From contig OY969695.1 of NCBI GenBank assembly GCA_963701965.1, positions 5,052,567-5,116,566 of the forward strand: 64,000 bases of DNA, read 5' to 3'. Origin of the DNA: an uncultured Gemmatimonadales bacterium (GTDB lineage Bacteria > Gemmatimonadota > Gemmatimonadetes > Gemmatimonadales > Gemmatimonadaceae). Each line of letters begins with the position of its first letter. The first letter of the stretch is position 1. Of the stretch, positions 4,545 to 19,164 are shown one piece after another. Made by a program: the position numbers and the translations under genes. The notes under the pieces were generated by a model. It searched no databases. It was given only the letters and a program-made list of their open reading frames with translations, and was not told the DNA's origin.

Positions 4545-5259
4545 ACGGTCACTCATCATCCTTCCGACCTACAACGAGCGCGAGAACCTGCAGCGTCTCG
4601 TGCCCTGTGTTCTGGGGCAGGACCCCACGTTCGACATTCTGGTGGTCGACGACGGGTCGCCCGACGGGACGGGCGAAGTCGCCGACGCCATCGCGGCGGA
4701 AGAGCCCCGGGTGCACGTGCTGCATCGGGCCGGGAAGATGGGACTGGGGACCGCCTACATCGCCGGGTTTCGGTGGGCGTTGGCGCGGGACTACGCCTAC
4801 GTGTTCGAGATGGACGCTGATTTCTCGCACGATCCGGCGCACCTGGCTGACTTTCGCCGGCGGATCACCGAGGCGGACATCGTCCTCGGCTCGCGCTACA
4901 ACCGGGGGCGGGTCACCGTCGTCAACTGGCCGATGTCGCGGCTCCTCTTGAGCTATGCGGCCAATCTGTACGTGCGCTGGGTGACGCGACTGCCGTTGGA
5001 CGATGCCACCGGCGGCTTCAAGTGCTTTCGGCGGGAGTTGCTGGAGCGGATGGACCTCGACGCCGTGCGGTCCAACGGCTACGCCTTCCAAATCGAGATG
5101 AGTTATCGGGCGTGGAAGCGCGGGTGTCGCATCGTGGAGATCCCTATCGTGTTCGTGGACCGGGCTGACGGCGTCAGCAAAATGTCGCCGCGGATCGTGC
5201 GGGAAGCGATCTGGATGGTCTGGCGGCTCCGCTGGTGGTCGCTGACGCGTCGGCTGTGA
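4537..5259 (+). CDS. Polyprenol monophosphomannose synthase-like GT2
   Basis: Motifs PTYNEREN, VDDGSPDGT, EMDADFSH, SNGYAFQIEM. Confidence 0.92.
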   Translation: MAERSLIILPTYNERENLQRLVPCVLGQDPTFDILVVDDGSPDGTGEVADAIAAEEPRVHVLHRAGKMGLGTAYIAGFRWALARDYAYVFEMDADFSHDPAHLADFRRRITEADIVLGSRYNRGRVTVVNWPMSRLLLSYAANLYVRWVTRLPLDDATGGFKCFRRELLERMDLDAVRSNGYAFQIEMSYRAWKRGCRIVEIPIVFVDRADGVSKMSPRIVREAIWMVWRLRWWSLTRRL

Positions 5260-6107
5260 TGAGCGGGACCAATGGCGCCGGGACCGTCGCGGTGGGTCAG
5301 CCGTTCTACAAACTGACGGGGTCGGGGAACGACTTCGTCTTTTTCGACGAGCGGACGGAGCCGGCGGGCGGGCGCTGGACTGCGAGCGCGGTCCGGGCGT
5401 TGTGCGCCCGGGGCACTGGGGTCGGCGCGGACGGCGTGGTGTGGCTGGAGCCGGGCGAGGGGGCGGCGGATCTCCGGATCCGGTACGTCAACGCCGACGG
5501 GTCGCCAGCGGCCCTCTGTGGCAACGCCACCTTGTGCACGGTACGGCTCTCGGCCCTGCTCGGCGGGCCGGCCGAGATCGCCATTGGGACCGACGCGGGT
5601 ATCGTGGCCGGCCGCCTTCGGGAGGACGACCCCGAGATCGATCTCGATCGGGTGACCGGGCTGGTGCCCGACATCGCCGTGTCGCGGCCGCCGGTGGCCC
5701 ACCGGATCGGCTATGCCGTCGTAGGGGTGCCGCACCTCGTCGTGCTGGTGGATGACGTCGCGGCGGTAGACGTGATGCGGGTTGGCGGGGCGTTGCGGCG
5801 CGATCCGGCCGTGGGACCGGCGGGGGCCAATGTGAATTTTGTCGGGCCAGCGGACGGCGGCGGCCTCCGGATGCGGACGTTCGAGCGCGGGGTGGAGGGG
5901 GAGACTCTGGCCTGCGGGACCGGAGCGGTGGCGACGGCCGCGCTTTTGGTGCAGTGGGGATTGGCGCTGAGTCCGGTGCCGTTGCTGACCCCATCGGGGT
6001 CAGTGCTAACGGTGCGGTTGGCGCAGCGTGGGGGGACCTTGGCGCCATCCCTGAGCGGCGAGGGGCGATTGGTGTACCGGGGGTTTTTGTCGGGTCAGCT
6101 CCCCTAA
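5259..6107 (+). CDS. dapF: Diaminopimelate epimerase
   Basis: Motifs GSGNDF, NADGSxAALCGNA, GVPH, GANVNF, RTFERGVEGETLACGTG (both catalytic Cys present). Confidence 0.95.
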   Translation: MSGTNGAGTVAVGQPFYKLTGSGNDFVFFDERTEPAGGRWTASAVRALCARGTGVGADGVVWLEPGEGAADLRIRYVNADGSPAALCGNATLCTVRLSALLGGPAEIAIGTDAGIVAGRLREDDPEIDLDRVTGLVPDIAVSRPPVAHRIGYAVVGVPHLVVLVDDVAAVDVMRVGGALRRDPAVGPAGANVNFVGPADGGGLRMRTFERGVEGETLACGTGAVATAALLVQWGLALSPVPLLTPSGSVLTVRLAQRGGTLAPSLSGEGRLVYRGFLSGQLP

Positions 6108-6150
6108 GGAAAGCTACTTACGCAAAGGAAAGTTACCACGCCCATGATTC

Positions 6151-6349
6151 TTTTCCACATCGAGGCACTGTGGCTAACATCTTATAGAACTGCCAGTTAC
6201 GGCCTTGATCTCCCGCGACATCTGACTTAGTTTTCCACGCGTATCCACACGGGGCAGTGGAGCGTGGACCTCGCGGGTCAACCAGCGCAAACAGGGCATT
6301 CCACCCACCGGACGCTCGACGATCCCATCGTCAAAGCGGCTGTGGAAAA
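6151..6349. promoter_or_regulatory. Cluster of DnaA-box-like 9-mers
   Basis: TTTTCCACA 6151-6159; TTAGCCACA (minus) 6169-6177; TTTTCCACG 6231-6239; GTATCCACA 6241-6249; TTTTCCACA (minus) 6341-6349. Consensus is TTWTNCACA. The first four lie in an AT-rich intergenic gap, the last just inside the next ORF. Confidence 0.5.
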
Positions 6350-6977
6350 CGTCCGCCGACACGTGGCGTCCCTCTCGGCCAGCGAGATCGTCCAGCTGGT
6401 CCTTTATCCCGAGTCACTCGCCGCCTGGTCGGCCCGCGCCCGGGTCGACGAGTCCCAGGTCGCCAATCTCTTTCGGCGCCACCGCACGTACACGCGCCTC
6501 CGCCAGCTCCTGGCCGAGCGACTCGGCGTCCCGTTCCTCGTGCTCGCCCACCTGATCGACGCCGCTCCCACCGTCCCCGCGGCGCGGCGCCCGGCCGCCC
6601 ACGCCGCGATCCTGGCCGCCGCCGGCCTGCCGTCGATCGAGGACCGTCCGCCCATCGACTGGCGCACGCCGCCCTATCCCTCCTATCGGGAAGGGCACAA
6701 CCCCCTCGAGCTCCTGGCCGCGGCCCATTTCGCGGTCACGGCACCGACAATGCCGGCCTCCCGCATCGTCGGCCTCGCCCTCTGGCCCGAGTCCCTGGCC
6801 GGCTTCGCGACCCGCTCACGCCGGTTCTCCCTCGGCGCGCTCCTGACGGCCTTGAGCGGGCTCCGTGGGTCGGACGTGATCGAGGCCGCCTTGGCGCAGC
6901 GCTTGGGCGTGCGCCGATCCGCCTTGGACCAGTTCATCGGCGCCGAGAAAGCGCCGAACGCCGCGACGCCAGCATAA
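6264..6977 (+). CDS. Hypothetical protein with two tandem Ner/Nlp-like HTH repeats
   Basis: 237-aa ORF with internal duplication ASEIVQLVLYPESLAAWSAR...LAERLGV / ASRIVGLALWPESLAGFATR...LAQRLGV. The fold call is by eye. Confidence 0.7.
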   Translation: MDLAGQPAQTGHSTHRTLDDPIVKAAVENVRRHVASLSASEIVQLVLYPESLAAWSARARVDESQVANLFRRHRTYTRLRQLLAERLGVPFLVLAHLIDAAPTVPAARRPAAHAAILAAAGLPSIEDRPPIDWRTPPYPSYREGHNPLELLAAAHFAVTAPTMPASRIVGLALWPESLAGFATRSRRFSLGALLTALSGLRGSDVIEAALAQRLGVRRSALDQFIGAEKAPNAATPA

Positions 6978-7061
6978 GAGCAGTGGAGAGATGGTCATGC
7001 GGCAGTGCTCAGATCCGTCAGAGCAGCTCATGTGGTTTCTCCACAATCCACATCGCCCTGT

Positions 7062-7089
7062 AGTTTACATAATGCCTATTATACGGAGT
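7062..7089 (-). other. dif: dif site (XerC/XerD chromosome dimer resolution site)
   Basis: Minus strand ACTCCGTATAA-TAGGCA-TTATGTAAACT has the 11-6-11 layout with inner ATAA/TTAT. The XerD arm matches the Bacillus subtilis dif XerD arm as I recall it. It is intergenic and close to the skew switch. Confidence 0.88.
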
Positions 7090-7316
7090 TATACTTAGCC
7101 CTAGATGCCCCCGCACAACGAGACCCCAGAGCCTGGCGATCATTCGTCGCAGGCGGCCTGCTGTACCGAGACGCCGGAGACGAATGATCGCCAGGCGACG
7201 CCGGCCGCACCCCGCCGCCAATGCCCCGTACTCACTAAGTCCCATTCGCCGCGCCATCGGCCGGTGGTAACTTGCCGGGTCCGCTACCGTCCTGTTGTCT
7301 CCCAGGAGCCGCCTAG

Positions 7317-8171
7317 ATGCGCCCGTCCCTCCGCGCCGTGCTCGCCGCACTCAGCCTCCTCGCGTGCCGCCCGCACGACGCCGAACGCGCGGCGGCCAAC
7401 CCACCGGCCGGTGCCACCACCGTCCCGGTGTTCACCGTCGTCGCCAAGGACTTCAGCTTCGACGCGCCCGCCGACGTACCCGCCGGGATCACCACGATCC
7501 GCCTGATCAACCAAGGCCTGGCCATGCACCACGTGGTGCTCATGCGCCTCGCCAACGGCAAGACCGTCGCCGACCTCGCCGCCAGCATGAAGCACCCGGG
7601 CCCCCTACCGACCTGGGCAGTCTCGGTCGGCGGTCCAAACGCCCCAGTCCCCGGCGGCACCTCGGAGGCCACACTCCTGCTGGAGCCGGGCAGCTACGTC
7701 CTGCTCTGCGTCATCCCCAGCGCCGACCAAATCCCGCACTTCGCCAAGGGCATGGTGAGCCCGCTGACGGTCACCGCCAGCGCGACCTCGGCGCCCGCCC
7801 CCGCCACGGAACCACCCGCCGACCTGACGCTCACCCTGACCGACTACGCGTTCGCATTCTCGACGCCGGTCACGGGAGGCGCGCACACAGTCCGCGTCGA
7901 AAACCGCGCCACGCAGGACCACGAGGCATTCCTCGTCCGGCTGGCGCCGGGCAAGACGGCCGCCGACCTCGTCGCCTGGATCGACAAGCAGGCCGGCCCC
8001 CCGCCCGCCGAGCCGCTGGGCGGCCTCACCGCCCTCGCCGCCGGCTCCCACGTCTACTTCACGCAGAATTTCACCCCAGGCCACTACGCCCTGCTGTGCT
8101 TCGTCCCCAATGCCAAGGACGGGAAAGCCCACGTCGCCCACGGCATGACGTCGGAGTTCACGATCAGCTGA
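7317..8171 (+). CDS. Lipoprotein with two cupredoxin-like (type-1 copper motif) domains
   Basis: Lipobox LLAC; two repeats H...LLCVIP-x6-H-x3-GM and H...LLCFVP-x7-H-x3-GM. Confidence 0.72.
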   Translation: MRPSLRAVLAALSLLACRPHDAERAAANPPAGATTVPVFTVVAKDFSFDAPADVPAGITTIRLINQGLAMHHVVLMRLANGKTVADLAASMKHPGPLPTWAVSVGGPNAPVPGGTSEATLLLEPGSYVLLCVIPSADQIPHFAKGMVSPLTVTASATSAPAPATEPPADLTLTLTDYAFAFSTPVTGGAHTVRVENRATQDHEAFLVRLAPGKTAADLVAWIDKQAGPPPAEPLGGLTALAAGSHVYFTQNFTPGHYALLCFVPNAKDGKAHVAHGMTSEFTIS

Positions 8172-14831: not shown

Positions 14832-15054
14832 CGAGATGCCCTAGGGTACAGGAGCGCCCAGGAGCGGACAATCTTCCGTCGGAATGTCCACTCTTGGGCG
14901 CCTATGTCTTCTCGTGTCCTTTCGCGTTCGACGCGACAGGAGACGCGACAAATCATCGTTCCTCGGCGCTGCCTTCCCAGATCCTCCACTTTCCCAATTC
15001 AGCCAGACGGTCTCTCAACTCGGCGTAGCCCGTACGACCTAGGTAGCGCGAGTA

Positions 15055-15297
15055 AACGTCGCGGTCAGGGCCCATCCGTCGACGAGCAGGTCGACGTGCT
15101 GCAGCAGCGTCTCCAGCCACGCGGTGAGCGCCTGATGCTCAGCCGTGTCGGCGGAGACGACCAATCGAAACGCTCCAGGCGTCGAGGCCTATCGACGCCT
15201 GGGGTTCGCACTGGGTGGCTTTGACCTCACGCTCTACGCGGGCACACCGGCGCGCGACGAGTTCGCGCTCAAACTGTCGCGCGCAGGCCGGACGTAA
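15055..15297 (+). pseudogene. GNAT acetyltransferase C-terminal remnant (Sat-like)
   Basis: 15151-15297 translates AETTNRNAPGVEAYRRLGFALGGFDLTLYAGTPARDEFALKLS...*; an RRGQG motif lies upstream in another frame. Confidence 0.55.
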
Positions 15298-15303
15298 CCG
15301 TGT

Positions 15304-16371
15304 CTAGTTGGCCGGGAGATACGAGTCGATGAACTTCCCCAGCGAATCGGCCGCCGGCGGATCGAGGTTCGCCAGGACGACAACGACGTAGCCACTCGCT
15401 GGGTAGATGGAAAGACGGCCGTTCTGTCCCGGCGCGCCGCCGCTGTGACCGATCCGGTGCGCGCCGCTCGGCAGCGTCAGATCGCCCAGGCCAAAGGCCC
15501 ACTTCACTCCCGGGAGCGTCGTCTCGACTTTGCCGGTCATGGCTATGGTGGTATAGTGCGCATTGAGCAGGCGATTGGCAGTGAGCGCGGTCGCAAATCG
15601 GAAGAAGTCGCCGACGGTCGAATAACCGCCGCCGGCCGACGTGCCGCGATCGGGGAGCATGCCGGCGGCCGAGCTCAGCGGGCCGGTGGGCTGGGTTCCG
15701 GGGCCGCCTCGCGTGTACGGGACCGAGAGGCCCGGGACGTTCACTTCGTAATCGCCGGTCGCGTGCATGCCGGCGGGCGCAAAGATGTGATCCTGGACGT
15801 AGGCGTCGTAGCTTTGGCCGCTCACGACTTCGATGACGCGGCCGAGGAGCATGTAACCGTAATTGCTGTACGCCCATTTGCTGCCGGGCGGGAAGTCGAG
15901 TCCGCGAGAGCCCAAGAGTGCGATGTAGTCGCGGATATAGTGCAGGTCTTGCTGGTGGGCATCGAACTCTGGGCCGAAGATGTCGCCGGTGCCGCCAGTG
16001 TGGGTGAGGAGTTGGTAGATTGTGACCTTGGCGACGTCGTGGTTCGGGTAGTCGGTCAGGTATTTCCCGAGCGGGTCGTCGAGGTTGATCTTGCCGGCTT
16101 GGACGAGTTGGGTGATGGCGATACCGGTGAACATTTTCGCCATCGAGCCGAAGCGGAATTTCGTGTCGAGCGTGTTGGGTATTTCCTTTTCGCGATCAGC
16201 ATAGCCGCACGCGGCTTGGAAGAGGGGTTTGCCGTCTTTGGCGATGAGGACGGCGCCCGAAAAGCTGCTGTCGGCGGCTCGGCGCGCGAGCTCCGTCTTG
16301 ATCGCGGCGATCGGCGGCTGCCCGTTGGCGATGGTCGTCGCACAGGCGAAGAACAGGAGGAGCTGTCTCAT
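15304..16371 (-). CDS. Serine hydrolase, beta-lactamase (class C-like) family
   Basis: Signal peptide; SxxK (SMAK), YSN, GHSGG and LLTHTGG motifs. Confidence 0.9.
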   Translation of the reverse strand: MRQLLLFFACATTIANGQPPIAAIKTELARRAADSSFSGAVLIAKDGKPLFQAACGYADREKEIPNTLDTKFRFGSMAKMFTGIAITQLVQAGKINLDDPLGKYLTDYPNHDVAKVTIYQLLTHTGGTGDIFGPEFDAHQQDLHYIRDYIALLGSRGLDFPPGSKWAYSNYGYMLLGRVIEVVSGQSYDAYVQDHIFAPAGMHATGDYEVNVPGLSVPYTRGGPGTQPTGPLSSAAGMLPDRGTSAGGGYSTVGDFFRFATALTANRLLNAHYTTIAMTGKVETTLPGVKWAFGLGDLTLPSGAHRIGHSGGAPGQNGRLSIYPASGYVVVVLANLDPPAADSLGKFIDSYLPAN

Positions 16372-16547
16372 GCTTGATTGGAGGCGCGTGTGGCGCAGAG
16401 GGTTGTCGTCCTGAATGATCGAGCGCAGGACGGAAGACCTCTGGCAAACCATGCGCCAGGGCTCGCGACTTGTACAAGTGCTTGTCGTGTCACGGGTTGC
16501 CACTGCACCGCACCGACGTATGAGTTCAGTTCCGAGACAGGGAGTGC

Positions 16548-16919
16548 GATAACGGACAGTTAGCGGACATTCGCATAGCACTGCGCAGCCTCCGCGCGGC
16601 GCCGGTGCTCGCAGCGACGATCGTGGCGACGCTGGCGATCGCCATCGGTGGCAATACGCGCATCTTCTCCGTCGTCGACGGCGTGCTGCTAAAGCAGCTC
16701 CCTTTCGGCAATGCCGATCGGCTGGTGACGATCACCGCTCGCCAGCCGGGCGGCGACCGGAGTGTGTCAGCGATGGATTTCACGGATTACCGCCGGCACA
16801 TCTCGCTGCTCGACGGGTGGGCGGTGTGGCGGCGCCGGGACGTCGCGCTCACCGGATCGGGCGAGCCCGAGCGGATCGTGGAGGCGGAGGCTGGCCGGCG
16901 CGATCGTGCGGGTTGGTGA
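16548..16919 (+). pseudogene. N-terminal fragment of ADOP/MacB-type ABC permease
   Basis: LADIRIALRSLRAAP...ATLAIAIGGNTRIFSVVDGVLLKQLPFGNADRLV; truncated after ~120 aa and lacks a proper start. Confidence 0.8.
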
Positions 16920-17280
16920 CTGAAACAATTCCGCTGTTCTCGGTCGCCACACTGAAGACCGATCCGACTCCGGTCTCGAACATTCTCATCGGCGAGCGTG
17001 GCCAAGAACCGCTCGGCCTCAGGATGCAAGCATACTTGTCTTGCCGGCGCGAGCGTTCCGATGCTTGCCGCTTCGAGCGCTCCTTCATGTCCTGCGAGTT
17101 GATGCGTGGCATTATCGTACCCTCAGTGTTGAATTGTGCTTCAGGTGTGATGACAACGTACGGGGTGCAAGGCCGACGTCGACGTATTGTTTTGAGTGGC
17201 GTTTGACGACTCAATGCCACGCGCGGCAGCACCGTGTCGTAGACCTGCAACAAAGGCCTGTGGTGGTGGTGCGCGACTAG

Positions 17281-18287
17281 CGAAAGCCTGGCAACGCGAC
17301 GATCACGTCGTTCCTGCCCGAGTTCATGAAGCGGTGGACCAACGAGGGCGGCCGCGACGGTCGGCCGCGCTCTGAGCGCGAGATCGCCGAGCTTCAGGAC
17401 GTGAAGTTGTACCGCGCCGAGCAGTTCTTCGAAGACACGCCGCTCTCTAAGATCACGCGGGCACTCGTGATCGACTGGTCACACCGCCTGCTGTCGGATC
17501 CGGGGCCAACGCGTCGCGCAGTCGAGGCAGAAGAGACGGACCGACCCAAGGGCTTGTCGAAGCGCTCGGCCAAGCACCACGTCGCCGCGCTGCACAACCT
17601 GTTCGAGCACGCGATCGAAGCCGGCCTACTGCCCGAGGGGCACAACCCTGTCACCGGATCACGAAGCGCTTGCGGGTCGAGAAGCAGAAGCCGAAGTGGC
17701 TCACTCCAGCGGACGCGATTCGCTTCGTCAAGGCAGCGAAGGCCGAGGGCGCGGACTTCTACGCCCAGGTCATGACGATGTTCTTCACCGGCGCTCGGCT
17801 CGGCGAGGTGCTTGGGCTGCGCGTCGAAGACGTTCGCCTCGAGGAGAACGAGGTCCACGTGTACGCGAACGAGCACCGTCGCGTGAAGAACGCGTCGAGC
17901 GACCGCGCGACGCCACTGTGGCCGAGGTTGAAGGACGTACTCGTGGAGTGGATCGGTGACCGCGACGACGGCTTGCTGTTCGCAGACGCCGAAGGTCACA
18001 AGCGGAAGTACATCCACCGGCAAGCGTGGGCGCGGGTGTGCAAGAAGACCGGCTTGAAGTTGAATCCGCACGGTGCACGGCACACGTACATCTCGCAGCG
18101 GCGGCAGTGCCTCGACGGCGGAAAGCCTGTGAGCGACAGCACTGTCGCCGAAGAGGTCGGGCACACGACGACCGACCAGATCGAGAAGACCTACGGTCAC
18201 GTCGCGAAGGTGCGTGTGCGCGTCGAGGGGTTCGATTATGAGACTACTTTGCGACAAGTCAGCACCGCCGGCGAGGCTGCTGACTGA
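17281..18287 (+). pseudogene. Tyrosine recombinase/integrase, 5'-truncated, one frameshift near 17655
   Basis: Catalytic R (TGARLGE), K (VKN), HxxR (HGAR), H (GHT) and Y (KTYGH). The SAM-like domain is in the preceding frame. In-frame TAG at 17278-17280. Confidence 0.85.
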
Positions 18288-18318
18288 TCTAAGCCGTTAC
18301 TTCTCATCTGCTTAGAAG

Positions 18319-18392
18319 TGCCCCCGGGGTGACTCGAACACCCGGCCAACGGTTTAGGAAACCGCTGCTCTATCCACCTGAGCTACGGGGGC
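18319..18392 (-). tRNA. tRNA-Arg (anticodon CCT)
   Basis: GCCCCCGTAGCTCAGGTGGATAGAGCAGCGGTTTCCTAAACCGTTGGCCGGGTGTTCGAGTCACCCCGGGGGCA folds as a cloverleaf; CCA is not encoded. Confidence 0.97.
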
Positions 18393-18438
18393 AAGATTCC
18401 GTGCAGTCGCAATTTACAGCCGTCCAACTACGGTTGCA

Positions 18439-19164
18439 TCACTGGACGCAGTCGCGCATGCCGGTGGTGTTGTCGTCGTAGCAGAGGCGACGCAGGGCGA
18501 ATTGGTTGTCCCCGACGCGCGGGAGTTGCGCGTCGAAGGTGATGGTGAGACGCGTGCCGCCACGGAAGAAGGAGAAGCGTCCGCGCGCTTCGCAGCCGCC
18601 GTCACCGCAGTTCATGGTGTCGATGTGCGCGCTGCCCGGGTGATATTGATCCATAGCCCAGCCTTCGGACCACTGGATGAATTTGTCGTTGATGCGGGCT
18701 TCCGTGTCCGTCTGATCCGGGCCTGATTGGGCCGACGGGCCCTGCGGCGTCGAGGCGACGTCACCGTCGTATACGAGCCCCACCCCCCGACATTGGTCGA
18801 TCGTCTCGCGGACGTACTGCGGATCGTGCACCATCTTCTTCAGTTCCAGCGTATCGGTGGGGCCGTGAGTCGGCACGATCAATCCGAGCTGCTCGGCCGT
18901 GCGGCGAGCGAACAGATAGGATTTCTCGGAGCCCAGTACGCGAAAGTGCTCCCGGCGCTCGTCGCCGGCATTTTTCGCGAAAATCTCCTCCACCTCGTTC
19001 GCGGCAGTGCAGACCATTGCGAGGCGATAGCCTTCCAACGTTTGAGGGGGCAGCAGCGAGTCCCACCTGAAGAACTCGCGTTCGGATGCGTTGGCGGCAT
19101 CTTGAGCCCGCGCGACGCCGGCGAGTACGCACAACGAGAGCAATGCAATGGCGGGTATTCTCAC
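18439..19164 (-). CDS. Exported hypothetical protein with paired cysteines
   Basis: Signal peptide ending ARA-QD; six Cys in the mature part. Confidence 0.7.
   Translation of the reverse strand: MRIPAIALLSLCVLAGVARAQDAANASEREFFRWDSLLPPQTLEGYRLAMVCTAANEVEEIFAKNAGDERREHFRVLGSEKSYLFARRTAEQLGLIVPTHGPTDTLELKKMVHDPQYVRETIDQCRGVGLVYDGDVASTPQGPSAQSGPDQTDTEARINDKFIQWSEGWAMDQYHPGSAHIDTMNCGDGGCEARGRFSFFRGGTRLTITFDAQLPRVGDNQFALRRLCYDDNTTGMRDCVQ

Follow-up and report, generated by a model that had tools for sequence, protein, structure and literature searches.

Our analysis indicates that a 237-residue protein encoded beside the chromosomal dif site of an uncultured Gemmatimonadales bacterium is probably an autoregulated, lineage-specific DNA-binding protein that carries two helix-turn-helix (HTH) domains in one chain and acts on three 11-mers upstream of its own gene. 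The gene lies between dapF and dif in the window, by which we mean the whole 64,000-nucleotide stretch of DNA analyzed here, the final 64 kb of a single contig of 5,116,566 bp (genome G000). An original prediction, made from the sequence of this DNA, had combined the gene, the DnaA-box-like sites on both sides of it, and dif into a candidate terminus-organizing system. The present work separates what formerly looked like one system into the gene with its own predicted operator and a box pair that belongs to an extended dif, in a phylum (Gemmatimonadota) for which hardly any chromosome biology exists.

The two-repeat protein and its predicted operator

The open reading frame (ORF) at 6264-6977, first noticed as a stand-alone frame, is a real, conserved, single-copy gene. 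Its GC content by codon position (0.74/0.55/0.87) was that of a genuine gene at a genomic GC content of 68%, and 68 homologs of the protein were found at E ≤ 0.001. The gaps on either side were indeed AT rich, with GC contents of 50.6% (6108-6263) and 48.8% (6978-7104) against 68.1% for the window. When 61 relatives were examined by a profile search (the unpublished genome G012 is counted among the 61 in the tallies of both the gene and dif), the family was found in 12 of them, as a single copy in each. When 1.84 billion protein representatives were searched with a profile, no more than 90 of them reached E ≤ 0.001, and many of these were fragments. The family is confined to Gemmatimonadales: the related loci came from metagenome-assembled genomes of Gemmatimonadaceae or Gemmatimonadales, and the source of one homolog is given as a Gemmatimonadaceae bacterium. 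Searches of Pfam, NCBIfam, and PHROGs found no family for the protein (best PHROGs E value, 0.41), in agreement with the first impression that it belonged to no described family. In another protein, P0140 (1155 residues), seven stretches matched profile positions 54 to 87 of the family; P0140 is possibly a repeat protein in which a single helix pair of this family is used again.

The two repeats described earlier were recovered as well: residues 20 to 121 and residues 146 to 237 were 35% identical across 77 residues (E = 2e-7). The whole protein was modeled with AlphaFold2 using 23 sequences. The model was all helical and consisted of two equivalent six-helix units, with a pLDDT (predicted local distance difference test) score of 90.5 and a pTM (predicted template modeling) score of 0.85. 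A VIA-align search with the whole model returned, for both halves, rows that were almost all XRE/lambda-repressor-type HTH proteins (best Z, 4.6). Repeat 2 folded by itself (pLDDT, 87.1) gave 43 chains at Z ≥ 5, the best of them with a Z of 6.9 and a root mean square deviation (rmsd) of 3.8 over 79 aligned residues, and nearly all of its top 50 rows had a lambda-repressor-like fold. The matches included HigA, P22 c2, 434, SinR, DdrO, and Mu Ner (1ner; Z, 5.4; rmsd, 4.2; 64 aligned residues). Ranked by probability, the top Foldseek row for repeat 2 was the EnrR-DNA structure 7f9h_B (0.90; TM, 0.53/0.67; rmsd, 2.5 over 64 columns; E = 0.94), and the nearest clusters in the ESM Atlas were XRE/Cro-C1 HTH proteins (score, 0.88 to 0.90). 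Because the rows of the structure searches were nearly all of the XRE type for both halves, the assignment of both repeats as lambda-repressor/XRE-type HTH domains is supported at the level of the predicted fold.

The repeats had been described as Ner-like. Ner proteins, about 75 residues long, consist of a single domain and form dimers. Both repeats were modeled as HTH domains, and Ner and EnrR were among the matches, but membership at the level of sequence profiles failed. HTH_35 gave no row at E ≤ 1 with the whole protein and none at E ≤ 10 with 14 repeat-2 sequences; HTH_3 (E = 0.062) and HTH_31 (E = 0.003) each matched 1 of the 14 members, the window's own repeat matching neither; and a profile search against PDB sequences, with 1NER and EnrR included, returned nothing at E ≤ 10. 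"Ner-like" is a fair impression, but Ner and EnrR are not separated from the other XRE-type matches. EnrR is reported to be about 45% identical to Mu Ner (PMC9023278). Compared with lambda-repressor/XRE proteins (HigA, P22 c2, 434, SinR, and DdrO), each modeled repeat superposes on the five-helix HTH domain with a Z of 5.3 to 6.9, and a palindromic operator, here a predicted one, likewise lies at the gene itself. Unlike these proteins, the present one has two domains per chain, both of which carry an additional long helix at the N terminus, and it has no partner gene and no oligomerization or sensor domain.

Three 11-mers in constant phase, which we regard as a predicted operator, precede the gene (Table 1), the first beginning directly after the dapF stop codon. 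The homologs of the protein fall into a clade linked to dif, which includes the window protein, and a sister clade (see below). The motif GGAA(A/T)GTTTCC, with a second copy about 19 bp on, was present 5' of every homolog examined in both clades, including those remote from dif. In the 16 other loci of the dif-linked clade, GGAAAGTTTCC was found 5' of the gene in all 16, either exact or with one mismatch. Far from dif the element forms a clean pair of palindromes; paired GGAATGTTTCC/GGAAACATTCC palindromes were found 5' of the homologs in L019, L020, L021, L022, and L073 and, in a looser form, in L023. The operator consensus, GGAAAnTT(T/A)CC, had one match in the whole of G000, and a regulon search across this genome found no second operator. 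The exact 11-mer was paired only at the gene in G010, G024, and G030, with one extra single site in G024, and no paired sites away from the gene were found in the five other-clade genomes searched. In relatives the operator occurred once per 20-kb locus, and single-mismatch extras were seen only in the window, L071, and L072. Motifs had been anticipated on both flanks of the gene; those on the 5' side were found in both clades, but no operator conserved between the gene and dif, or past dif, was present across the clade loci. In G000, an inverted 13-mer resembling the operator is present past dif, at a distance of 40 nt from the start of the following gene. The other genomes of the genus did not have it. 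Among the 15 other clade loci with dif, 14 lacked a counterpart and L071 had one single-mismatch site at +823; the 13-mer may be a chance copy. Operator copies bracketing dif were rejected as a general feature, since they were found in G000 only, apart from the one weak site in L071.

The predicted operator also bears on the DnaA-box-like sites. Five sites at ≤1 mismatch from TTATCCACA lie within 1 kb here, the densest cluster in the genome (195 sites in total; Poisson P for ≥5 in a given kilobase, 6.5e-10). Boxes on both sides of the gene were thus present as claimed, but they fall into two unrelated sets, one coinciding with the upstream operator and promoter and the other with a downstream dif element. 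On the upstream side, TTTTCCACA at 6151 is the right half of the third 11-mer, and TTTTCCACG overlaps the -10-like hexamer of a putative promoter, a block that reads TTGACC...TAGGTT in other genera. The sequence GTATCCACA at 6241 lies within an insertion specific to G000. The site at 6341, inside the coding region, is conserved as protein sequence, and an E-to-D change breaks the box in one member of the genus; it is best explained by coding constraint. The upstream "DnaA boxes" thus seem better explained as the gene's own -10 region and predicted operator, the latter accompanying the gene even where dif is far away, than as a link to DnaA.

In the reading that we favor, the 237-residue protein would bind the three phased GGAAAnTT(T/A)CC sites 5' of its own promoter, and this binding would control its own transcription. 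One chain might read one near-palindromic 11-mer with both HTH domains, as a pseudo-dimer. The protein represents a small unannotated family with two predicted XRE-type HTH domains per chain and its own phased operator-like element. The original job of the family may have been tied to replication or recombination, as suggested by the recA-recX locus and the C-terminal tail of the sister clade (see below), and the clade of the window would have lost this clamp-binding-like tail after its relocation to the dapF-dif junction. The observations can be accounted for without any direct action at dif, where a role is possible.

Several observations weigh against this reading. A Foldseek search against PDB returned nothing at E ≤ 0.001 with either the whole model or a single repeat, and every fold match had a Z below 8, the safe level of the tool, so that these matches are rated middling. 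A sigma-70 consensus scan called 0 promoters at the locus, and it is therefore from its conservation that the putative promoter is proposed. In G000 the predicted operator lies about 50 to 100 bp 5' of the putative -35 hexamer, a position that suits activation as well as repression. Since a single-target regulator would be unusual, other targets that are weaker or structure specific may exist. In the dif-linked clade the operator, TGTGGAAAG..., is similar to the dif box, TGTGGAGAA. Finally, the gap between the gene and dif stayed short despite insertions on the dapF side, which could reflect selection for linkage.

Table 1. Features of the dapF-dif region, in positions of the window
Feature	Position	Strand	Description
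dapF (diaminopimelate epimerase)	5235..6107	+	Pfam PF01678, E 7.1e-35
Predicted operator	6108..6156	+	Three 11-mers phased 19 bp; direct repeat D11, spacing 19
First 11-mer, GGAAAGCTACT	6108-6118
Second 11-mer, GGAAAGTTACC	6127-6137
Third 11-mer, GATTCTTTTCC	6146-6156
Putative promoter	6205..6233	+	TTGATC, 17 nt, TAGTTT; block conserved in genus alignment
Box-like TTTTCCACG	6231-6239		Overlaps conserved -10-like TAGTTT
Tandem-HTH gene (predicted domains), 237 aa	6264..6977	+	Repeat 1, residues ~20-121; repeat 2, residues ~146-232
Box-like TTTTCCACA in coding sequence	6341..6349	-	Codons for A-V-E-N
DnaA-box-like pair, TTCTCCACA + ATCCACA	7037..7052	+	Putative dif accessory element
dif (XerC arm, 6 nt, XerD arm)	7062..7089	-	28 bp, 11-6-11; XerD arm faces the gene
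GC-rich hairpin repeat (REP-like), outside the system	7131..7196	.	25-nt arms, 92% complementary
Operator-like 13-mer, inverted, far side of dif	7264..7276	-	12/13 identical to 6127-6139; inverted repeat I8

dif and its flanking box pair

The dif site begins 84 bp past the stop codon of the gene, at the distance first reported. A loose dif pattern had a single match on both strands of the 5,116,566-bp genome, and the 21-nt core was found once per genome in 54 of the 61 relatives, with two matches for the reversed control. A XerD gene, scoring above the TIGR02225 cutoff, lies at 5,035,100-5,035,963 of the genome, 24 kb from dif, and a second Xer-like gene is found elsewhere. The most skewed octamers were GGGGAAGG and GGGAAGGG, which resemble KOPS (FtsK-orienting polar sequences); all 25 copies in the 183 kb to the left of dif were oriented towards it, the final one falling within the ORF at 6264-6977. 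The site at 7062-7089 thus has the properties of a chromosomal dif: it is unique and conserved, XerD is encoded, and the KOPS-like motifs on its left side all point to it.

Next to the XerD arm lies the downstream set of DnaA-box-like sites. The sequence TTCTCCACAATCCACA, 9 nt from the XerD arm, was invariant in all six genomes of the genus. We examined 42 dif loci (L025-L056 and L063-L072); from loci with two dif-like sites, the one bearing a box was used. A strict TGTGGAnAA, oriented as in the window and ≤35 nt from the XerD arm, was present in 31 of the 42 loci, with an expectation by chance of 0.003 per locus; it started at +16/+17 in 30 of 32 occurrences and was found at none of the 42 loci on the XerC side. 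Among 201 genomes from the phylum, 88 matched the composite of a XerD arm, 17 to 18 nt, and TGTGGA; the reversed control matched once. By family, it was found in 19/38, 61/96, and 2/3 genomes of the three families of the order and in 6/63 of the phylum's other families. In 43 distinct sequences chosen by the composite, the two unselected positions after TGTGGAn were each A in 41. The resulting consensus on the dif side, TGTGGA(G/C)AA, fits the DnaA-box 9-mer pattern (TTWTNCACA, or TTATCCACA). Ahead of the extended dif box, TGTGGAnAA(C/G), there was often a weaker copy lying 10 nt closer, or else an inverted CCACA (L025-L056, L063-L072, and L078-L089), and dapF was almost always the gene reading into the extended dif.

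The original prediction had assigned these downstream boxes to the system of the gene. However, the box pair also adjoins dif in genomes in which the gene lies elsewhere or was not found, and because boxes occur at dif without the gene (the gene being found in 12 of 61 relatives and dif in 54), the downstream boxes belong to dif rather than to the gene. By this comparison of loci, the pair is part of an order-wide extended dif, at a fixed distance and in a fixed orientation. The dif box was also considered as a KOPS-type motif, which was rejected because TTCTCCACA is rare and shows no strand skew. In the titles and abstracts covered by a literature search, no description of a DnaA-box-like module at dif was found. 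The plasmid Xer sites cer and psi have accessory sequences with ArgR, PepA, and ArcA. Like them, the dif box pair would be a site at a fixed distance from the Xer core for a protein other than the recombinases; unlike them, the boxes lie on the XerD side of a chromosomal dif, span about 20 bp, and are DnaA-box-like. If DnaA binds the boxes of the extended dif, termination and initiation could be coupled at dif.

Three members of the genus had, 30 nt from dif, another dif-like site that is degenerate (L046 in G005 and L048 in G003, locus positions 1501-1571; L044 in G002, 1451-1521). In two of these genomes it was inverted, each time with a box pair of its own; in the third its orientation was direct. 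The doubled sites may be traces of Xer-mediated integration or of a duplication of dif plus boxes.

Linkage of the gene to dif

To the left of dif, dapF is the neighbor conserved across the order. At 25 of the 26 dif loci without the gene, GT2-dapF was followed directly by the boxes and dif; the remaining locus is cut by a contig end. In the gene's own clade, YfhO-GT2-dapF lay upstream at all 16 loci, with the gene between dapF and the boxes. One contig of this clade ends before dif; at the 15 assessable loci dif was present in the same orientation in every case, and the gap between the stop codon and dif was 35 to 137 bp in 14 of them and 670 bp in one. The expectation that homologs would lie next to dif thus held in this clade, whose proteins were 62 to 74% identical, but not beyond it: a homolog of 34% identity had no dif within 10 kb, and in the sister clade the gene was 12.5 kb from dif in G053, where it is next to recQ, 324 kb away in G036, and on a different contig from dif in the others. 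A tree of 22 rows, which left out L059 (near-identical to L057) and the partial hit in G033, placed the 16 dif-linked proteins apart from the other 6; support for this split was 100/100, and the branch measured 1.8 changes per site. Since the 16 dif-linked proteins form one clade, the linkage to dif arose once. The gene owes its place at dif to a single ancestral insertion into an older, order-wide dapF-dif junction. In several genomes, dapF and the gene have since been separated by 0.4 to 3.4 kb with unrelated genes (for a HAD hydrolase/ATPase fusion, a serpin fragment, and a Kelch protein); past dif, the clade loci had nothing in common with the window. The short gap that was kept is the best argument for a functional tie, yet it represents one evolutionary event.

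This gap is at the center of an alternative that we consider unlikely, namely, that in the dif-linked clade the protein is a terminus or dif factor acting in cis, either as an accessory or timing factor for XerCD or as a local organizer, perhaps together with a protein that binds the box pair. It would account for the constant orientation and short distance to dif at 15/15 loci, for insertions gathered between dapF and the gene where the far flank of dif is not syntenic, for the operator-like 13-mer past dif in G000, and for the clade's operator beginning with TGTGGAAAG, close to the dif box. However, the linkage has a single origin, the left flank of dif is stable across the order in any case, and the sister clade lies away from dif; moreover, no conserved operator lies between the gene and dif or past dif, and the boxes are present without the gene. 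MatP/matS, Tus/Ter, and RTP are lineage-specific terminus DNA-binding proteins that act via several sites across ter. Unlike these, the present protein has a single recognizable site region, at its own promoter, and a sister clade that is not linked to the terminus; a role as a multisite terminus organizer of their kind was not supported. A closer precedent may be XafT, described as a small, mobile-element-borne factor encoded beside a Xer site and acting by contact with XerD (PMC9226527). By analogy, a gene adjacent to dif could modulate XerD; the two are likened by description only, and unlike XafT the present gene is chromosomal and vertically inherited.

The sister clade offers another explanation. 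In G036, G024, and G030 the gene order was recA-recX-gene-alaS, whereas in G000 recX and alaS are 100 bp apart with nothing between them. After a Pro/Ala-rich stretch, the sister-clade proteins ended in QLSLGL, QLSLGF, QLTLGF, QLGLGF, QITLGF, or QLSLEL. This tail fits the hexameric clamp-binding motif QLxLxL, exemplified by the C-terminal QLVLGL of Pol IV (PMC4564189), and may be considered clamp-binding-like. The protein could accordingly be a factor coupled to replication or recombination, through the replisome or the RecA pathway, with the window protein keeping this role without the tail. We judge this improbable for the window, whose whole clade is without the tail: no dif-linked member has one, and the window protein ends in ...EKAPNAATPA. 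Genome searches also did not find the operator at recA or other repair genes. Substitution for LexA was considered and rejected, because LexA was present in 60 of the 61 relatives with or without the gene. The two genomic homes of the family are both recombination loci, which makes it a candidate link of replication or recombination to gene control in Gemmatimonadota. A bolder proposal would derive the dif-linked clade from a clamp-tethered recA-recX protein and make it a dedicated dif accessory factor, working with DnaA or a paralog on the XerD-side boxes to gate XerCD recombination or to signal the completion of replication; we consider this, too, to have little probability.

It is very unlikely that the gene is a remnant repressor of a mobile element (a prophage or an IMEX, an integrative mobile element exploiting Xer) integrated at dif, for although HTH repressors of the lambda-repressor fold are common in phages and three genomes of the genus carry a second dif-like site, the protein has no PHROGs family, its flanks are without integrase or phage genes, it is inherited vertically as a single copy with upstream synteny at 16/16 loci, and sister-clade members sit in the core recA-recX-alaS locus. 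We therefore retain, as the probable reading, an autoregulated two-HTH protein acting at its own promoter.

Chromosomal setting and other observations

A probable origin was located at about 2.7235 Mb, where 4 DnaA boxes (1 perfect) lie within 100 bp, after a DnaA-type gene of 349 residues with a strong domain IV and with a dnaN-sized ORF next. The cumulative GC-skew minimum of the whole genome was at about 2.68 Mb, and dif is offset by about 222 kb from the antipode of the probable origin. A flip of GC skew at the start of the gene had also been reported. Locally it was found again (+0.106 at 4 to 6 kb of the window versus -0.154 at 6 to 8 kb), but the genome-wide maximum of the cumulative skew was at about 0.3 Mb, some 0.3 to 0.35 Mb past dif, 5.05 Mb being a local peak only. 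To the right of dif the polarity of the KOPS-like motif was mixed. Because of this mixed polarity and the more distant global maximum, the flip at the gene is local, and the right flank of dif is probably rearranged or acquired DNA. From 5.06 Mb to 0.3 Mb, wrapping around the contig end, both skew and KOPS-like polarity remained left-replichore-like for about 0.3 Mb past dif, a pattern suggestive of a recent inversion or an insertion, or else of termination elsewhere than at dif. About 10 kb to the right of dif, window positions 15000-19000 had a GC content of 0.63 to 0.65, compared with 0.68, and contained a weak tyrosine-recombinase-like match (about 17643-18092) and a tRNA-Arg(CCT) (18318-18392). 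This region is possibly an integrated element.

Three DnaA-family genes were found in the genome, at 2,641,375-2,644,857 (L009), 592,624-596,100 (L010), and 2,720,898-2,724,374 (L011). The protein of 510 residues has DnaA_N, the ATPase domain, and a weak partial domain IV; that of 349 residues, whose gene adjoins the origin box cluster, lacks the N-terminal domains; and that of 626 residues has two DnaA-type ATPase domains and is without domain IV.

The hairpin repeat between dif and the next gene lies outside the system. In Rfam, the region 5900-7400 matched only a hairpin below the threshold, at 7133-7194, apart from one chance row. Copies of this repeat of about 75 to 88 nt, which resembles a repetitive extragenic palindrome (REP) or a miniature inverted-repeat transposable element (MITE), were found at genome positions 3,418,750, 2,617,956, 2,613,048, 2,612,901, 2,612,439, and 1,967,050, three of them clustering near 2.61 Mb.

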